From a virus, in IMG/VR virus record IMGVR_UViG_3300020051_000004: 64,000 nt of DNA; one strand, 5' to 3'. Under the pieces are notes generated by a model. That model saw nothing but the letters and a program-made list of their open reading frames with translations. It was not told where the DNA came from and did not search any database. Of this stretch, positions 1,863-62,575 are shown one piece after another (the first letter of the stretch is position 1; each line of letters opens with the position of its first letter). The position numbers and the translations under genes were made by a program.

Positions 1863-4060
1863 GATTTTACGATCATTAGGTTAATATTAGCGAACTGAAC
1901 CCCACTAACAGAATTAATTTTGCACCCAAGGTAAGAATCTCTGCTTAACCCGCTTGTCCAACCAACCACATCTCCAGAATTTTTAATTTGCGCCGAAAGA
2001 TTTGGATTATTCGCGCTAACAATGTTTGTTAAAGCTGGAAAGCTTGAGTAATCTCCATAAACAATATCAAGATTAATTGATCCAGTGTTGGACGAAACAA
2101 CTTCCCAACCAGTTATGGTACAGTCAAAAGGAATTTTTGAATAACCTTTTACTCCAGTGGTTAAACTAGCGCCGCCTATAAATAGGTTGATTGTTCCCGT
2201 TTTGAGAGTGTTTAGCTGAGTCTGTAAATTTTCAGATGTAGTATTTACATAAGAAGCTGTCGCAAAAACTCCAGTATCATTTGGCCTCACAACGTCGCCC
2301 GTGACAAAATTTCCAGTATCACTAGGGCGAACCACGCTTCCTGTGGCGAAAACTCCTGTGTCGGAAGGTCTTACGACGTTTCCAGTTACGAATCCGCCAG
2401 TTTCAGATGGGCGCACCACATCACCAACAACAAAAGAACCTGTTTCTGACGGCCTAACTACAGAGCCAGTAACATAATTACCAGTCTGAGAGTTTAGAAG
2501 ATTGAATTGGCCGCTAAAATATCCACTAATACCAGAAACATAAGAAATCGAAGCATAAGACGAAAGATCAACACCAGTTAAATACCGTCCATCAAAATTA
2601 ACGAGGATTGTTCCGTTGTCGCCGCTTCTGTTTAAAGTTAAAACGCCGTTGCCAGTATTGAATTGGCCCGAATAAACAAACCAATTTTCGCCCGAAACAC
2701 TTTCTCCTGTTCCTTGTAAATCTGTGAAAGTGGTGGTTACAGTTGAGCCGTCTCTCTTGTAAAGAGACAATGTTTTAGAAGACGAACCAGAAACATTTGC
2801 GCCCGTTACATCAGTCAATAAAGGAGTCCACTGACCACTGTGACAAACATAAAGATTTTGGCCGCTTCCTGTTTGATAAAACGTGATTCCATCAAAAGGG
2901 CTAATCTGCGGAACTGAGTAACCAGTAAAAATACCACTCCTTTGACCGCTAGAACCAAACGGCGGAATACCTTCTGTGAAAGTTTTGGCCTCTTGAGGAT
3001 AGTCTAGAACGCCTGTTAGTTGTCCCGTCCAAAATAGTCCCGTCGAAAAATCATCATATGGAAGAACCTTGTAGTATAAAATTTCTCCTTTGGGCTGCTC
3101 CTCTTTATCTATTTGTAAAGAATAAGAAATATCTGAATCAAAAATAGGAACACTTTTCAGTAAGTTTCCGCTATTAGGAGAGAAAGAAGAATTTGCGCCT
3201 GTGAAAACATCAAATTGCCTGACCAAAAACTTCGTCCCATTATCTGGAACACTTAAAAATAAACTAACAGCGCCCGTTTGACCCTCTGAATATCCAGAAA
3301 CTTGCGCCGCATTAATTTGCGCGGGCAAATGATAAATTGTGAAATTGCTAAAATTAATTTCTGCGTTTTCTTGAAGCCTAAAATTTAATTGATAATAACG
3401 ATGAGCTTCGCCAGCAAAAGCCTCCTTGTTTTGCTCGTAAGTGAAAACATAGTTCGTAGAAGAAATACCGCTTCTAAAATTAGAGCCGCTAGGAGCAACG
3501 CTTCCTCCCGTGTGATAAACATCAAATCCAATGGAAACGTCAACAAAACTATTCGCCAAATCAAAATCATTAGAAATAGCGTTCCCAAACCGATCCTCGA
3601 ATTGAAAATCGAACGGCACATCTTTTTTCAGCGCTACAGAATAGCCAATGCCCGTTCCATTTGATCCGTCAGAAGGAACAAAAGAAGAAGGAAAACCAAT
3701 ATCAGGAGGACTCTCGAAAACAAATGGCGCGGGAGTAGTTGTTGGCGCTGGTGTTGTCGGGGGTGGCGTGGTTGGCGTGGGAGTAGTTGTGGGAGGAGGC
3801 GTCGTTGGCGGCGGGGTAGTCGGCGGCAACGTCGTCGTGGGCGGCAGTGTAGTAGTCGGAGGTGGAGTTGTGGTCGGCGGAGGCGTCGTCGTAGGGGGTG
3901 GCGTTGTCGGCGGAGGAGTCGTTGGTGGTGGGGTTGTGGGTGGCTCTGTCGTGGGAGGCGGAGTCGTTGGCGGAAGTGTAGTAGTTGGAGGAGGCGTTGT
4001 CGTAGGTGGCAACGTCGTCGTAGGTGGTAAAGTGGTGGTAGGAGGAAGAGTAGTTGTCAC
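1859..4060 (-). CDS. tail fibre-like protein with N-terminal Pro/Thr low-complexity region and 13-aa internal repeats
   Basis: GTG start overlaps the gpJ TGA stop; PT-rich N-terminus; FN3-like middle (YYKVLPYDDF); VVRP repeats; C-terminal domain with IPFDCTITGWEV. Confidence 0.6.
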   Translation of the reverse strand: MTTTLPPTTTLPPTTTLPPTTTPPPTTTLPPTTPPPTTEPPTTPPPTTPPPTTPPPTTTPPPTTTPPPTTTLPPTTTLPPTTPPPTTPPPTTTPTPTTPPPTTPAPTTTPAPFVFESPPDIGFPSSFVPSDGSNGTGIGYSVALKKDVPFDFQFEDRFGNAISNDFDLANSFVDVSIGFDVYHTGGSVAPSGSNFRSGISSTNYVFTYEQNKEAFAGEAHRYYQLNFRLQENAEINFSNFTIYHLPAQINAAQVSGYSEGQTGAVSLFLSVPDNGTKFLVRQFDVFTGANSSFSPNSGNLLKSVPIFDSDISYSLQIDKEEQPKGEILYYKVLPYDDFSTGLFWTGQLTGVLDYPQEAKTFTEGIPPFGSSGQRSGIFTGYSVPQISPFDGITFYQTGSGQNLYVCHSGQWTPLLTDVTGANVSGSSSKTLSLYKRDGSTVTTTFTDLQGTGESVSGENWFVYSGQFNTGNGVLTLNRSGDNGTILVNFDGRYLTGVDLSSYASISYVSGISGYFSGQFNLLNSQTGNYVTGSVVRPSETGSFVVGDVVRPSETGGFVTGNVVRPSDTGVFATGSVVRPSDTGNFVTGDVVRPNDTGVFATASYVNTTSENLQTQLNTLKTGTINLFIGGASLTTGVKGYSKIPFDCTITGWEVVSSNTGSINLDIVYGDYSSFPALTNIVSANNPNLSAQIKNSGDVVGWTSGLSRDSYLGCKINSVSGVQFANINLMIVKS
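2258..2486 (-). repeat. five 13-aa tandem repeats (G[S/D/N]VVRP[S/N][E/D]TGxF[V/A]x)
   Basis: Visible in the translation of 1859..4060. Confidence 0.9.
3725..4060 (-). repeat. mucin-like (PTTT[L/P]P)n repeat, ~110 aa
   Basis: Protein-level repeat encoded with heavily diversified synonymous codons. Confidence 0.9.
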
Positions 4061-14001: not shown

Positions 14002-14661
14002 ATGCTTAACCCCCTCAACCAACTCATAGGCAAGAAACTACACTACACGTTGGTTTATTATAGAAATCCAAAATCGGCGAGTTCGAGCATTTTCTCCGCT
14101 CTCGGCCCAAGAAATTTATTTTGGCGCGAAAAAAAGTTTTTAGATTCGGCCCTTTCTAAGGACAAGAAATACGGTGGAGTATTTGATCCATCTCACGTTC
14201 TTCCATCAGAAGCTCGAAAATTGTTTGGCCGTGGGTTGGATAATTTCTTTTCTTTTACTTGCGTGAGAAATCCTTTCTGCAAGCAAGTCTCACAATGGAG
14301 TTTTTCGCGGGCAAAAAATTGGGGCCGCTTGTATGGATTGCCTGATGATGGAAGTTTTAGCGAATGGTGCGAAGCTCTTTGGAAAAAACGGAAAGACCAA
14401 ACATTTTGGCCCGTTATACCTCAAACAAAATTCTCTCACGAATTTCCACTAAACTGCATTCTCAAATTTGAGACACTAAATAAAGATTGGTCTTCTATGT
14501 TAAAAGACAATCAAATCAGTGGACTACCAGAACATCTCCCGCACGAAAATAAGTCAAAACACCAGCCTTGGCAGGAAATAATCACAGAAAAAGACGCCGA
14601 CATTATTCGCGAAATTTTCGCTTGTGATTTCTCGGCTCTTGAGTATAGTTTAAAAATATGA
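14002..14661 (+). CDS. sulfotransferase (Sulfotransfer_2-like)
   Basis: 5'-PSB-like RNPKSASSS, 3'-PB-like FTCVRNPFCKQVSQW, KFETL..DW, LPHEN, IF..DF..LEY. Confidence 0.78.
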   Translation: MLNPLNQLIGKKLHYTLVYYRNPKSASSSIFSALGPRNLFWREKKFLDSALSKDKKYGGVFDPSHVLPSEARKLFGRGLDNFFSFTCVRNPFCKQVSQWSFSRAKNWGRLYGLPDDGSFSEWCEALWKKRKDQTFWPVIPQTKFSHEFPLNCILKFETLNKDWSSMLKDNQISGLPEHLPHENKSKHQPWQEIITEKDADIIREIFACDFSALEYSLKI

Positions 14662-22071: not shown

Positions 22072-22965
22072 ATGAGCACTCTAGACACATCTTACCAACA
22101 AATCCTACGCGACATTCATCAATATGGCGAATGGGAAAACAATAGAACAGGAATCCGCGCCAAAATAATTCCATCCGCAATGATTACTCATGATATGAGT
22201 AGTGGATTTCCACTACTTACGATCAAGAGAACGCCATTTAAAACAATGGCCGTTGAACTTGAGGGTTTCATCAAAGGAATCACCTCTAAGAAATGGTTTC
22301 AAGAACGTGGATGTAAAATTTGGAACGAGTGGTGCAATCCTCAAAAAGTTCCTTATGGCAATGATAAATTGAGCAAAGCAAGAATGCTGTTAGAAGATGA
22401 TCTTGGATTAATTTACGGTAGCCAGTGGAGAGATTTTTGTTTCCCCGACAAAGATGGCATTTATACTGACTCGCATGGTAATTCTCCTAATGGAGTTGAT
22501 CAGTTGCAAATCATTGTTAATACGCTCAAAGAGAATCCACAGGATCGGCGAATGATTTGTTCCGCATGGAACCCTTTAGCCTTGGACCAAATGGCTCTTC
22601 CTCCTTGCCATGCTCTCTGGCAGGTTTCAGTGATCAATAACAAACTAAATCTCTGCTGGTTTCAGCGTAGCGTTGATACCCCCCTTGGGCTTGGAATAAA
22701 TATTGCATCTTATGGTCTTTTGCTTCACCTTTTGGCGCGGATTTATGGATTTAGAGAGGGCGTTCTTACTGGTTTCTTATCAAATGTTCATTTTTACGAA
22801 AATCAAATGGACGGCGTTGATGAAATTTTAGAGAGACATTCTACTTACAGCTTACCACAAGTTGAGACAGAAAAGCTTGATTCGATTTTTAATTGGTCGC
22901 ATTATCAAACAAAGTTGATTAATTACAATAGCCTTGATAAAATCAGTATGCCAGTTGCCGTTTAA
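22072..22965 (+). CDS. thyA: thymidylate synthase
   Basis: NRTG, FPLLT, LGLIYGSQWR, DRRMICSAWNP, MALPPCH, QRSVD, NIASY, HFYENQ. Confidence 0.96.
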   Translation: MSTLDTSYQQILRDIHQYGEWENNRTGIRAKIIPSAMITHDMSSGFPLLTIKRTPFKTMAVELEGFIKGITSKKWFQERGCKIWNEWCNPQKVPYGNDKLSKARMLLEDDLGLIYGSQWRDFCFPDKDGIYTDSHGNSPNGVDQLQIIVNTLKENPQDRRMICSAWNPLALDQMALPPCHALWQVSVINNKLNLCWFQRSVDTPLGLGINIASYGLLLHLLARIYGFREGVLTGFLSNVHFYENQMDGVDEILERHSTYSLPQVETEKLDSIFNWSHYQTKLINYNSLDKISMPVAV

Positions 22966-26763: not shown

Positions 26764-27195
26764 TCATAAACGGGGCGAAAAAACTGCTAGAAGAGCTAAA
26801 AGCTGCTTAGCCACAAACTTTTCATTGCCGCGCTCTAAAATAAAAACATGCGGCGCTTCATTTTCTGATACCTCTTCAAACAAGGAGTCTGAGTCTTTGT
26901 ATTTGCCCGATCCAAGATGCGAACAATAAACAACCACATCGGGCGCAAATATTTTTCTCAACTCTTTTGTGGGGCAAATAAAATCACAAACCACAACTCG
27001 CGACCCACATTTTTTGGCCAAAAGTTTCATAGTTTCTGCTTGACGCTTTCTCCCATTCATGGTAAAGTCATTATTGCTAGTCAATTCCCTCATAAAATCA
27101 CCATTAAAATGAGTAAAATCAAAGAAACCTCGCAAATAATTGGCAAAAAAAGTTTTTCCGCTTGACGAGAGCCCGCAAATTAGAATCTTAATCAT
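26764..27195 (-). CDS. adenylyl-sulfate (APS) kinase-like P-loop kinase
   Basis: ILICGLSSSGKT, FNGD.MR...NDFT..GR.RQA..M, VCDFICPT..LR, KY.D...LFE; start at MIKILI. Confidence 0.75.
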   Translation of the reverse strand: MIKILICGLSSSGKTFFANYLRGFFDFTHFNGDFMRELTSNNDFTMNGRKRQAETMKLLAKKCGSRVVVCDFICPTKELRKIFAPDVVVYCSHLGSGKYKDSDSLFEEVSENEAPHVFILERGNEKFVAKQLLALLAVFSPRL

Positions 27196-27213: not shown

Positions 27214-27885
27214 ATGAAAATTACCTTCCTCCGCCACGGACACTCTAACAACTCTTCATCTAGCCATTCTCTTATTTTCACAAGGCAAGAACTGCCAAAC
27301 TCCGACGAGAGTTCTGAATTTGGCTGGCAATCTTTCACCTGCTCAAGCAAACAAGACAAGTTGAACTATTTATTGACTTGTCTGCACGAAAAGTTTTCGA
27401 GCCAATTAAATTTTCCGTATCTTTACGAGATTGATGACTATAAGAATGACAAGTGGCACTCTTACGTGGAATCTTCCAGGAAAACTTTAAATAATTTAGA
27501 AAGCTCAATGTTTAAGACTTGGGTGAAAATCTACCTTGGATTCGAGGATTTTAATGTGAGCGGTTATGTTGACCACCAATCAAGGATTAGCTTCCCATGT
27601 GATCGAGGCGGCAAAAAAATTCATTATGAATTTGCCAAAGACTTTATTAATGAGTTCGTTTGGTCTGGAAACTGGTATGTTTTCGGCGGCAATGACAATG
27701 AGGATCGTAGCGACCCCCCAACCAATGACGAAAAGGGTGATTTTGAAGATTTCCGTGCCGTCTGGAGGTTCCTAACCGATACTGGAGATATTATGTGTGT
27801 CAAAGACCAGTTGACAAACGAGTATGTCTTGAGTAATGTAGATGGACAAAACTATAACGGCTCAATCACCAAAATCAAATTCTAA
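27214..27885 (+). CDS. hypothetical protein with N-terminal RxGxxxNSSSSHS motif
   Basis: MKITFLRHGHSNNSSSSHSLIF; also FGW, GYVDHQS, GGNDN; TAATG-coupled to the radical SAM gene. Confidence 0.75.
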   Translation: MKITFLRHGHSNNSSSSHSLIFTRQELPNSDESSEFGWQSFTCSSKQDKLNYLLTCLHEKFSSQLNFPYLYEIDDYKNDKWHSYVESSRKTLNNLESSMFKTWVKIYLGFEDFNVSGYVDHQSRISFPCDRGGKKIHYEFAKDFINEFVWSGNWYVFGGNDNEDRSDPPTNDEKGDFEDFRAVWRFLTDTGDIMCVKDQLTNEYVLSNVDGQNYNGSITKIKF

Positions 27886-28754
27886 TGCACCTACCACAAA
27901 ACTTCGCGGCCAAATCTGGGTTTCCATACCTTGTTGATGTTAAAATTTCAGAGTTCTGCCCATATAACTGCAATTTTTGCTATCAGTCTTCAACGAAGGA
28001 GGGAAAACACGCCGAACAATATTTCTTATCTTCAACTTTGCCAGAGGTTTTGATGAATGCTGGTGTTCTTGAGGTTAATTTTGGTGGCGGCGAACCAACT
28101 CTTTACAAAGGGGAGGGCTATGGAACACTAGAATATGTCCTTCGCGCCTTTAAAAGCAAAAGGTTTAAGGTTGGAATTACTACAAAAAACTACAACTGGC
28201 ACAAAGACAAGAATTTTGCAGCACAAATTAAATTAGTTGATTCGGTGGCTATTTCAGTCAACTCTCTAGATGAATTAAAGGCTGCGGAAAAACTTGAAAA
28301 AGCTATTAACGCAGATGGTCGAGCGCCTGTTTATTATCAGTGCGTTTTTGAGTTGGTGTCTTATGAGCAATTTAAGGAATTTATTGTTGCCGTAGCCGAA
28401 AGACACAATCGAAACATTACACTTCTTGGATACAAAGACTTTGGTTTCGGGAAAAACGGTCAAAAGTACAATTATCCTAATGAGTGGATCGGTTTCATTA
28501 AAGAAATACATGATAAAACCCGATTGAACATTGGAATCGACTCCGTAATGGTAAAAAATTGGCGCGAAAAATTAATTAATTTCGGCATCAAAGATTATTA
28601 CCTTGTCGGGACAGAGGGGAAATCGACTTGTTATGTTGATGCGGTAAAACAGAAAATGTATTCCAGCAGTTTCTCAGACGAAGAAGGTTTGCCAATGCCA
28701 AGCAGTATTTACGATAAAAAGGTTGACTTTTTGAAAAACTTTGCGACATTTTAA
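27885..28754 (+). CDS. radical SAM enzyme
   Basis: CPYNCNFC (CxxxCxxC), FGGGEPT, LLGYK..GFG, EG..TCYVDAV. Confidence 0.92.
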   Translation: MHLPQNFAAKSGFPYLVDVKISEFCPYNCNFCYQSSTKEGKHAEQYFLSSTLPEVLMNAGVLEVNFGGGEPTLYKGEGYGTLEYVLRAFKSKRFKVGITTKNYNWHKDKNFAAQIKLVDSVAISVNSLDELKAAEKLEKAINADGRAPVYYQCVFELVSYEQFKEFIVAVAERHNRNITLLGYKDFGFGKNGQKYNYPNEWIGFIKEIHDKTRLNIGIDSVMVKNWREKLINFGIKDYYLVGTEGKSTCYVDAVKQKMYSSSFSDEEGLPMPSSIYDKKVDFLKNFATF

Positions 28755-30916: not shown

Positions 30917-31807
30917 ATGAACCTATCCCTCTGCTGCATCTCTCAAACACTCTCCGACAACGGCCATTCGTTCAAAACAATGACCTATACTCAGTTTTGC
31001 AAAAAGCCATTTGACGTGGCCATCGCAGAATTGAGCGAGCGTATTCTTCACAATTTCAAGAATACTTTGCGGACAATTCGGTTCTGCCAGCTTAACAATA
31101 TCCAAGGATACAGATTGTCCAGTAGCCTTGCGCCAATCTTGACGCACAAAAACGTTAATTTACACATTCGCGACTTGCCAAATTTTGCGGCCATTAAAAA
31201 TGTGTGCGAGCAAATTAAAGCGGCGCTTTTAGTTTCTCCTCTGCGTCTTTCAGCTCATCCTAGCGAGTACATCACTCTCTCTAGCGATAACCCAGAGTGT
31301 ATTAAAAACAGCATACTCGACTTAGAACAGCACGCCGAGATTTTTGACTTGTTGGATTTGCCAAACGATTATCGCTCGCCCATGAACATTCATGTACGCC
31401 GTGACGATGATCCTGTAAAAGTTGCTACCCGAGTATGGGAAGTTTATGACGAGTTGCCAGACAATGTTCGTAATCGCCTTGTCCTAGAAAACAATGACAA
31501 TGCTAATGGCGTCTGGAGCGTTAAAAACCTTGTAGAGTATTTTCGCGGGATTCCAATTACTTTTGATACACTTCATCATTCTTTGTTACCTGATGGGTTG
31601 ATTGATCAAGAGGCATTTAACATAGCTTACGACACTTGGCCTGTTACTCCTATTTTTCATTATAGCGAGGGTGTAGATGGAACTCGCAAACACGCCGACA
31701 TGCCAGTTTCGTTTCCAAAAGATTATGGGCGGGAAGTGTTTTGGGAAATCGAGTTAAAACAAAAGAATTTAGCAATAGATAAAATTAGAGAATTAGCCGC
31801 AAAATAA
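30917..31807 (+). CDS. uvsE: UV damage endonuclease
   Basis: YRLSS, RLSAHPSEY..LSS, NIH, RLVLENND, PITFD.LHH, P.FHYSE, RKHAD, EIELKQK. Confidence 0.92.
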   Translation: MNLSLCCISQTLSDNGHSFKTMTYTQFCKKPFDVAIAELSERILHNFKNTLRTIRFCQLNNIQGYRLSSSLAPILTHKNVNLHIRDLPNFAAIKNVCEQIKAALLVSPLRLSAHPSEYITLSSDNPECIKNSILDLEQHAEIFDLLDLPNDYRSPMNIHVRRDDDPVKVATRVWEVYDELPDNVRNRLVLENNDNANGVWSVKNLVEYFRGIPITFDTLHHSLLPDGLIDQEAFNIAYDTWPVTPIFHYSEGVDGTRKHADMPVSFPKDYGREVFWEIELKQKNLAIDKIRELAAK

Positions 31808-50831: not shown

Positions 50832-50921
50832 GAGCGCGTGGCGGAATAGTAGACGCGGCGCATAGTAGGACGCCAAAACCGAAACGTGCTTGCATTGCAC
50901 GTTCAAATCCTGCCGCGCTTT
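50832..50921 (+). ncRNA. tRNA-like RNA with an elongated non-canonical anticodon arm
   Basis: Acceptor GAGCGCG/CGCGCTT; Leu-type D arm GCG-GAATAGTAGA-CGC; T arm GCACG-TTCAAAT-CCTGC (one mismatch); central arm GCAT-AGTA-GG..CC-GAAAC-GTGC. Confidence 0.65.
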
Positions 50922-62072: not shown

Positions 62073-62156
62073 CCTACTCTGGCGTAATAGGTAGCCGCAT
62101 CAGACTTAAAATCTGATACTAGAAATAGTGTGCCAGTTCGAGTCTGGCGAGTAGGA
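62073..62156 (+). tRNA. tRNA-Leu(TAA)
   Basis: Full cloverleaf: CCTACTC/GAGTAGG, anticodon arm TCAGA-CTTAAAA-TCTGA, long variable arm, GCCAG-TTCGAGT-CTGGC, discriminator A; CCA not encoded. Confidence 0.95.
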
Positions 62157-62168
62157 CTTTCCCCTAAT

Positions 62169-62242
62169 GTTCCTGTAACTCAATAGGATAGAGTATCGTT
62201 TTTCTAAAGCGAAAGTTCTAGGTTCGAGCCCTAGCAGGAATG
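62169..62242 (+). tRNA. tRNA-Arg(TCT)
   Basis: GTTCCTG/CAGGAAT, D arm ACTC/GAGT, anticodon arm TCGTT-TTTCTAA-AGCGA, CTAGG-TTCGAGC-CCTAG. Confidence 0.92.
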
Positions 62243-62575
62243 CTCCTCTAAGAAAAATCCCTAGTCGAGGAAAAAAAGACAAATAATACTTGCGCCGCCC
62301 AAAATAACCTGCTACTTTAAACCATGAATAAATTTAAAAACGGCAACTTCATTGAATCGCTCGAATCTGGCACGGTTAAAGCTGGAATCTATGGGTACGT
62401 GATTGACACTTTCCGCGATGGAAATTTCTGGAAATATGAAATTTACTGGATAGGCGGAGGAAAAACAATCGCCCGAGAAAAAGATTTAAAGCTTGCCGAG
62501 TAATACATTTACCTATAGAAAAACGAGTCTCTTACCTAGGTGTCTTTTGCACTCTATACACTGAAAAGTTTTTAG

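Follow-up and report, generated by a model that had tools for sequence, protein, structure and literature searches.

Within a 64,000-nucleotide stretch of viral DNA (IMG/VR record IMGVR_UViG_3300020051_000004; the whole stretch is referred to here as the window), positions 27,214 to 28,754 hold two genes, ORF A and ORF B, that overlap at a TAATG junction. Our data indicate that the two genes are the split form of a two-domain enzyme. ORF A supplies an N-terminal domain that begins with a short conserved hairpin, referred to here as the tag, while ORF B supplies a radical S-adenosylmethionine (SAM) domain. The window is phage DNA; among its genes are those for a J-like and a minor tail protein, ThyA, a clamp loader and UvdE, together with tRNA genes. 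The features of the two genes are as follows.

27214..27885, plus strand: ORF A, 223 amino acids, start MKITFLRHGHSNNSSSSHS; the tag-bearing N-domain half of the split enzyme.
27214..27279, plus strand: N-terminal tag hairpin, ORF A residues 1-22; a strand, the loop R7-x-G9-x-x-N12-N13-S14-S15-S16-S17-H18-S19 and a second strand.
27319..27327, plus strand: FGW motif (F36 G37 W38), without variation in the split clade and with family-wide conservation of 90% or more for G37 and W38.
27568..27582, plus strand: VDHQS motif (V119-S123); D120 and H121 are invariant in 50 fused proteins and missing in tag-only paralogues of gut phages.
27685..27699, plus strand: GGNDN motif (G158-N162); G158 and D161 are invariant in 71 sequences.
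27781..27882, plus strand: C-terminal three-stranded beta-sheet of ORF A, approximately residues 190-223, with the end GSITKIKF; docked on the enzyme barrel in the complex model.
27883..27887, plus strand: TAATG stop/start overlap of ORF A and ORF B, at the site of the former interdomain linker.
27885..28754, plus strand: ORF B, 289 amino acids; the radical SAM half, without an auxiliary cluster (PF04055, 5e-13; phrog_16999, 3.5e-31).
27957..27980, plus strand: CxxxCxxC [4Fe-4S] binding motif of ORF B (C25, C29, C32), invariant in 33 homologues.
28083..28094, plus strand: GGGE SAM-binding motif of ORF B (G67-E70), with G67, G68, G69 and E70 invariant.

A two-domain enzyme split in its linker

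An earlier note on this DNA had described ORF A by its MKITFLRHGHSNNSSSSHS start and by three conserved-looking islands, FGW, GYVDHQS and GGNDN, and we found all of them, the islands at residues 36-38, 117-123 and 158-162. The TAATG join to a CxxxCxxC enzyme is likewise present, with cysteines 25, 29 and 32 of ORF B forming the motif. The TAA stop codon of ORF A occupies 27883-27885 and the ATG start codon of ORF B occupies 27885-27887, and upstream of this ATG the frame of ORF B is open for nine codons only. The earlier note also held that the two genes are translationally coupled. The overlap of stop and start codons stands, and on the sequence it is consistent with coupling.

We found that tblastn of ORF B against isolated phages retrieved gp146c of Salmonella phage Arash (476 amino acids; WGL32597.1; L001:3482-4912), in which residues 1-136 align with ORF A (E 2e-11) and the C-terminal half is the enzyme. 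This protein contains the motifs ...ATNSSSSHS, FGYGW, GYIDHES and GGNDN; it is annotated as a 'methyltransferase', a label that finds no support here. Fusion is the common state of the family. In 51 of the 53 IMG/VR loci with an ORF A relative, both parts lie in one open frame of 431-545 amino acids (one of the other two loci is interrupted and one has no enzyme), and approximately 25 of the 34 scorable metagenome loci are fused as well. A profile of the stand-alone ORF A homologues matched 1,431 clusters (50% identity, E<=1e-3), 1,037 of them at E<=1e-10; the best matches are approximately 210-250 amino acids long, and the rest are mostly proteins of 450-545 amino acids with an enzyme domain. 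Among fused relatives the closest is P0041, with a match of 3.4e-49 to the ORF A profile and a C-terminal half 40% identical to ORF B (E 4e-56); the cut in the window maps to its interdomain linker. The tail of ORF A, GSITKIKF, which had been likened to the segment before the SAM domain, fits the consensus GxKxRxSF of the fused proteins. The suggestion that the pair is a split fusion is thus borne out by the 51 fused loci.

The split takes several forms across the family. Two relatives whose ORF A is 83% and 71% identical to that of the window (L057 and L058, respectively) share its TAATG junction, and a more distant one (L060, 40% identity) is split as TAA, 5 nucleotides and ATG. In L063 and L064 the enzyme gene comes first and runs into the tagged gene by an ATGA overlap, and L080 and L112 are further splits. 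Searches of isolated phages with ORF A and with the DNA (tblastn and blastn) gave no match, and the partners in phages RM378 and MaMV-DC were found by profile search of the whole phage records. RM378 has the gene order p108 (enzyme), p107, p106 (tagged partner), with a small gene between the halves, while MaMV-DC has its tagged partner at ORF128 and its enzyme at ORF126, with a transposase between them. RM378 p106 and MaMV-DC ORF128 ('hypothetical protein') are thereby identified as the hitherto unrecognised partners of the genes annotated 'Fe-S oxidoreductase' in the two phages. The same kind of search of the Thermus phage TMA record found no tagged partner, but the enzyme of this phage matches ORF B over just 32% of its length. 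A programmed frameshift between ORF A and ORF B need not be invoked, given the nine open codons upstream of the ORF B start and the spacers or swapped gene order of other lineages.

We asked how these splits are distributed in a quick tree of 159 N-domains. The window falls inside one large clade, approximately 57 clusters at 50% identity, in which all members are split, both halves are intact and all motifs are kept. Well-supported branches of this tree force at least four changes between the fused and split states. By this sequence comparison, the split clade of the window is old and the splits in other lineages are independent of it.

The tag and its radical SAM partner

The conserved-looking islands of ORF A are not chance resemblances. 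Its stand-alone homologues (215-235 amino acids, 38-90% identical) retain every motif, and in 19 of them N12, N13, S14, S15, S16, H18 and S19 are invariant, as are F36, G37 and W38, V119, D120, H121 and S123, and G158-N162. Conservation is sharpest in the tag. Across 71 N-domains, whose mean column identity is 22%, N13, S14, S15, S16 and H18 are 100% conserved, and R7, N13, S14, S15, S16, H18 and S19 are 97-100% conserved in sets of 71 and 50 sequences. G9 is 96-97% conserved and not invariant, being C or N in a few members; R7 and G9 together reach 96-100%. The tag of the family reads R-x-G-x-A-[TN]-N-S-S-S-x-H-S, with the invariant N-S-S-S beginning at protein residue 13-14, and residues 7-19 of ORF A conform to it. 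Its position is always the extreme N-terminus.

ORF A had no match in Pfam, NCBIfam or PHROGs, and the 71 N-domains had no recurrent match in Pfam. The AlphaFold2 model of ORF A is confident except for the tag loop, with a predicted local distance difference test (pLDDT) score of 84 and a predicted template modelling (pTM) score of 0.84; the loop is flexible both here and in the model of fused P0041 (pLDDT <50). Profile searches of solved structures gave nothing useful, Foldseek of the model against the PDB gave no match at E<=0.001, and VIA-align against 48,161 chains matched only a variable helical hairpin (residues 57-111) at Z <6. A search of the ESM Atlas returned unnamed viral clusters only. 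We considered ORF A as a flavodoxin, SGNH hydrolase, metallophosphoesterase, HAD or DHH protein; neither motif order nor fold search supports any of these. No known fold was therefore found for the ORF A model in these searches, a result that does not in itself prove a new fold.

ORF B is a radical SAM protein by its matches to Pfam Radical_SAM (PF04055, 49.9 bits against a cut-off of 29.5) and to phrog_16999, 'Fe-S oxidoreductase'. It contains five cysteines, of which only the three of the cluster motif are conserved, and it therefore has no C-terminal cysteine-rich auxiliary cluster of the SPASM or twitch type. Its invariant barrel residues are mostly acidic (D18, E63, D219, E244 and D252). 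The best weak sequence matches of the enzyme half are prokaryotic viperin families. Named models score well below their cut-offs, namely the viperin models NF038283 (51.2 bits, cut-off 180) and TIGR04278 (22 bits, cut-off 450), TIGR02495 NrdG2 (38.4 bits, 8e-10, cut-off 131) and HxsC of the His-Xaa-Ser system (20-37 bits, with 19.8 for ORF B, cut-off 268); ORF A has no HxS repeats.

The cluster motif varies in spacing among relatives (Cx5Cx2C, Cx6Cx3C and Cx7Cx3C among P0095, P0106, P0107, P0119, P0125, P0129 and P0146, and Cx11Cx2C in L060:1381-2289). Inteins in some relatives sit exactly at the third cysteine of this motif. P0131 (920 amino acids) carries a full intein with a LAGLIDADG domain. 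In L021:4277-7160 (IMGVR_UViG_3300023210_003613) one ORF closes with the N-intein half, and a second, approximately 1 kb downstream, opens with the C-intein half (...VHN|CYQNS); this arrangement may represent either a split intein or one that a free-standing gene interrupts.

These observations bear on the idea that ORF A is an electron-transfer, chaperone or regulatory docking subunit, or that the pair is a decaying split pseudogene. No function has been shown for either half, and radical SAM enzymes need a reductant, some of them carrying fused flavodoxin domains. However, the fold searches with ORF A gave neither a flavodoxin nor any other known fold, and the family searches gave it no match to a cofactor-binding family. 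Decay fits poorly with a split form that persists over approximately 57 clusters with intact halves and motifs, and inteins in the cluster motif are typical of proteins under strong selection. We consider both versions very improbable.

The earlier note stated that proteins beginning RxGxxxNSSSxHS recur beside this type of radical SAM enzyme, and comparison of gene neighbourhoods upholds this. The tag protein occurs with a phrog_16999-type enzyme, fused to it or within approximately 2.5 kb, in 52 of 53 viral loci and in 78 of 80 loci with a FETNSSS variant of the tag. Among isolated phages, the association is found in representatives of all four groups with a full-length ORF-B-type enzyme. Across 181 loci, the window included, exactly one tagged ORF is present in all 111 tag-carrying loci outside that of phage Lak-C1, whose region has four or five; the remainder have none. 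The ratio of tagged protein to enzyme is one to one in the part of the family that includes the window.

The association does not extend to other genes. No neighbour is universal in the phage loci, where helicases occur in 17, P-loop kinases in nine and homing endonucleases in some, and no conserved nucleotide-metabolism, protease or exporter neighbour was found among the loci compared. Approximately 20 cellular copies, with bacteria of the candidate phyla radiation among their carriers, also have no conserved neighbour, and the unit therefore appears to be self-contained in phages and cells alike. Fused copies lie on long cellular contigs without common neighbours (L097, L098, L100, L108 and L115: a 1.65-Mb Myxococcales contig, the isolate Bailinhaonella thermotolerans, and metagenome-assembled genomes of Anaerolineae, Woesearchaeota and Tessaracoccus). 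Overall, the family is spread over phages of cyanobacteria, enterobacteria, thermophiles and gut Bacteroidota, together with a few cellular genomes.

In some gut phages the tag occurs on more than one protein. Prevotella phage Lak-C1 (MK250029.1, L178:2896-6244) has an enzyme gene (2896-3783) followed by five tandem tagged ORFs of 165, 223, 118, 186 and 101 amino acids, which have only approximately 22 N-terminal residues in common (MKxQxRxGVFETNSSSxH); one of the five retains FGW, GYIDH and GNDN. The Lak enzyme has NGND in place of the GGGE of the family. The last hairpin of ORF A aligns with the N-terminus of the Lak enzyme, whose chain carries this hairpin, and the cut point therefore varies among lineages. 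At least two tagged ORFs are present in 31 of the 80 IMG/VR loci with the FETNSSS variant, and a crude pattern test detected no DH and GNDN motifs in 107 of the 126 tagged ORFs of these loci. On this comparison, the tag behaves as a separable unit.

Predicted complex and candidate chemistry

We questioned whether the two halves are predicted to bind one another, as the earlier note had proposed to check by complex structure prediction. With an alignment of 33 sequences for ORF B and one of 19 for ORF A, the model of the complex reached interface scores (ipSAE) of 0.75, 0.79 and 0.65, while the best of three controls reached 0.01. Among solved complexes 58 of 80 reach the same mark, as do 2 of 110 mismatched pairs, counts that are only a rough guide here since custom alignments were used, and the halves of one split gene are a case prone to pass such a prediction. 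The runs share at least 88% of their contacts, with partner pLDDT of at least 71. No similar solved complex turned up in the structure searches. An interaction is thus predicted, at 0.75 against 0.01 for the best control, and ORF A and ORF B very probably form an obligate complex.

In the model, the interface comprises ORF A residues 3-22, 131-133 and 194-218, and on the ORF B side it includes the invariant L16, D18, E63, D219, E244 and S262. The contacts of lowest predicted error join ORF A residues 194-218 to ORF B residues 11-16, 60-62 and 93-95. The tag hairpin and the last beta-sheet of ORF A are both placed on the inner face of the enzyme barrel, and the whole hairpin (3-22) lies against alternate barrel-strand residues that include the invariant D18, E63, D219, E244 and S262.

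Fused P0041 is modelled as one compact body (pLDDT 89.8, pTM 0.89), with only residues 13-25 below 50. Its best structural matches are the peptide maturases SkfB (Z 23.0, root-mean-square deviation (rmsd) 3.4 Å over 280 residues, model range 193-516) and SuiB (Z 22.3, rmsd 3.2 Å over 291 residues, model range 136-516), followed by viperins (Z ~20, rmsd 2.7 Å over 236-241 residues, model range 228-516), MoaA (Z 17.7), anSME (Z 16.5-17.1) and the PFL-activating enzyme (Z 13). The matches to SkfB, SuiB, viperin and MoaA, at Z 17-23, support a partial or full TIM-barrel fold for the enzyme half. As for a RiPP recognition element (RiPP: ribosomally synthesised and post-translationally modified peptide), the superposition with the N-terminal region of SkfB and SuiB takes in only the three-stranded end sheet of ORF A, and no helices of such an element were identified.

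We hypothesize that ORF A and ORF B form an obligate heterodimer in which the enzyme performs radical chemistry on the tag, and we give this a probability of about one half. We favour it because the tag is the sole universal feature of the partners and is predicted in the barrel mouth against invariant enzyme residues, and also because one enzyme can have several tagged proteins that are unrelated in other respects, and because peptide maturases are its nearest structural matches. In most relatives the protein is a single chain, in which a linker joins the tagged N-terminal domain to the radical SAM domain, and in the lineage of the window the gene was cut in this linker. The halves translated from the overlapping genes would then reassemble as a heterodimer. 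The last beta-sheet of ORF A would pack on barrel strands 1-3 of the enzyme and the invariant hairpin (R-x-G-x-A-x-N-S-S-S-x-H-S) would enter the open side of the barrel, facing the invariant polar residues. The enzyme would cleave SAM, and a hydrogen would be abstracted from a residue of the tag loop, most probably a serine. The resulting covalent change, for example aldehyde oxidation, epimerisation or a cross-link, would mature ORF A, and in some gut phages the same enzyme would act on several further tagged proteins. The split of a fusion, the near-constant pairing of tag and enzyme, the conservation and a predicted interface are direct results of the analysis, whereas the tag as the site of chemistry, the kind of chemistry and the role of the matured protein for the phage are inferred. 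A more specific form of this hypothesis is tentative, namely that the NSSSxHS loop may be a new protein tag turned into a protein-derived cofactor or cross-link by a dedicated radical SAM enzyme free of auxiliary clusters, acting on its own N-domain in cis in most phages and on one to five separate tagged proteins in the split and gut forms.

The earlier note had proposed an enzyme-substrate pair with RiPP-like or cofactor-generating maturation, or else a two-part nucleotide-modifying system. The enzyme-substrate pair is now the leading hypothesis, on the indirect evidence of the tag predicted in the barrel mouth and of the tag-only paralogues in some gut phages. A classical RiPP system is unlikely and was rejected, since the tag stands at the very N-terminal end of a folded domain, a leader peptide is absent, and the neighbouring genes include no conserved protease or exporter. 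The nucleotide-modifying system gained no positive support, with no conserved nucleotide-metabolism neighbours and with invariant barrel residues that are mostly acidic.

Several observations weigh against chemistry on the tag. A one-to-one fusion of enzyme and substrate means a single turnover per molecule, which is unusual, and the phage enzyme has none of the auxiliary clusters used by most radical SAM enzymes that modify peptides, anSME included. The fit of its fold to viperin, a nucleotide enzyme, is also good. In full N-domains the tag lies beside the invariant polar DH and GNDN motifs, which together resemble a binding pocket. The interface is itself a prediction, and the tag-only calls come from a crude pattern test.

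The main rival explanation is a composite active site. Here ORF A would be a non-substrate subunit, and the NSSSSHS loop would form with DHQS and GGNDN a polar pocket closing the barrel, in which a substrate other than protein, such as a nucleotide, a DNA or RNA base, a sugar or a cofactor precursor, would be held for hydrogen abstraction. The one-to-one stoichiometry, with most relatives fused, agrees with this, and the three invariant polar motifs each follow a strand, with the secondary-structure assignment of the model suggesting that these strands are neighbours. The enzyme half superposes over its full length on viperin and also on MoaA, it has prokaryotic viperins as its best weak sequence matches, and the gene sits among DNA-metabolism genes (ThyA, UvdE and a clamp loader in the window; helicases, polymerases and an RNA ligase elsewhere). 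However, no nucleotide-metabolism gene is conserved beside it, and many gut-phage partners retain the tag without DH and GNDN. The triphosphate site of viperin is rich in Lys and Arg, unlike the acidic invariant residues of the phage barrel. A radical SAM enzyme dependent on a hairpin from another chain is also not known to us. On balance, a composite site is possible but rather unlikely.

The tag also invites comparison with glycyl-radical enzymes. ORF B could be an activating enzyme that places a stable radical on ORF A, for instance on G9 of R-x-G, and ORF A would then be the radical catalyst. Like PflA and NrdG, ORF B is small, has its cluster motif at 25-32 and lacks an auxiliary cluster; it has the weak NrdG2 match (38 bits), R7 and G9 are highly conserved, and the loop is predicted in the barrel. 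The NrdG2 score nevertheless lies far under its cut-off, the structural match to the PFL-activating enzyme is much weaker than those to SkfB or viperin, and a few members have C or N in place of G9. The fingerprint of glycyl-radical partners is RVxG, and the R-x-G of the tag differs in spacing from RVxG[FWY]. A glycyl radical is destroyed in oxygenic or aerobic hosts, and the hosts of the family include oxygenic Microcystis as well as aerobic Thermus-type and Salmonella hosts. We regard this as very improbable, the least probable of the explanations considered.

Other genes of the window were noted alongside the pair. A P-loop kinase gene (26764-27195, minus strand; phrog_10255, with weak APS-kinase and AAA_17 matches) is divergent from ORF A and 18 bp away from it. 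A functional link to this kinase was considered and rejected, since the one homologue found is in L058, 3 kb away, and L057 has none beside its ORF A; the AAA_33 kinases of nine other loci are unrelated to it. On the strand of the pair lie genes for a phrog_3347 sulfotransferase-like protein (14002-14661), thymidylate synthase (22072-22965) and the UV-damage endonuclease UvdE (30917-31807). ARAGORN calls a tRNA with a four-base anticodon (agta) at 50832-50921 (plus strand), of unknown identity, and normal tRNA-Leu(taa) and tRNA-Arg(tct) genes at 62073-62243 are described as close to it.

Relation to known systems

The nearest relatives are other phage proteins. Arash gp146c, RM378 p106 with p108, and ORF128 with ORF126 of MaMV-DC and Ma-LMM01 belong to the same family and share the tag, the FGW, DH and GNDN motifs and the enzyme domain. 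They differ in arrangement, gp146c being fused, RM378 enzyme-first with an intervening small gene and MaMV-DC separated by an intervening transposase, whereas the two genes of the window overlap. Family members carry the public names 'Fe-S oxidoreductase', 'methyltransferase' and 'organic radical activating enzyme'. The paper on phage Arash does not mention the gp146c gene (PMC10585845), and we found in the literature no description of a phage family that joins this tag to a radical SAM enzyme, nor a published name for it.

Among characterised enzymes, the RiPP maturases SkfB (6EFN) and SuiB (5V1T) act on a short conserved motif of a protein or peptide partner, as is proposed for the phage enzyme, and their alignment with the fused model starts in the end sheet of ORF A (model residue 193 for SkfB and 136-192 for the SuiB chains), at the position of their peptide-recognition region. 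Unlike them, the phage family has no SPASM or twitch cluster, no leader-core peptide and no nearby protease or exporter, and its tag forms the N-terminal end of a folded domain, usually in one chain with the enzyme. The anaerobic sulfatase-maturating enzyme anSME/AtsB (4K38) is a radical SAM enzyme whose folded client is matured when one Ser or Cys of a short, invariant motif is oxidised to a catalytic aldehyde. This enzyme has two auxiliary clusters, a C/S-x-P-x-R motif and clients of the alkaline-phosphatase-fold sulfatase type, none of which is found in the phage family. Viperins (5VSL, 9DGW; NF038283) have a catalytic domain similar to the enzyme half in size and fold, including the C-terminal extension, but they have no partner domain, and the phage barrel residues are acidic where theirs are basic (51 bits against the cut-off of 180). 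In the HXS antiphage system the radical SAM enzymes HxsB and HxsC mature HxsA, which carries short His/Ser motifs, in a setting of conflict between phage and bacterium (PMC13128918). HXS serves bacterial defence and combines SPASM enzymes with HxS repeats, and its architecture differs from that of the phage pair. A radical SAM enzyme with a dedicated protein partner is a known kind of system, of which this phage family is a member that is undescribed in the literature found.

New chemistry has come to light repeatedly from radical SAM enzymes with protein substrates, including formylglycine, sactionine, cyclophanes and epimerisation. The family described here is large, with at least 1,431 clusters at 50% identity, and its partner domain has no family model. 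The natural split in the window eases testing, since it provides the enzyme and its tagged partner as two proteins, with a defined 13-residue peptide as the suspected target. If the tag is modified, the family would be a new and very widespread phage system of post-translational modification. If it is not modified, the family would be a new two-part radical enzyme, whose substrate would probably be relevant to the conflict between phage and host.

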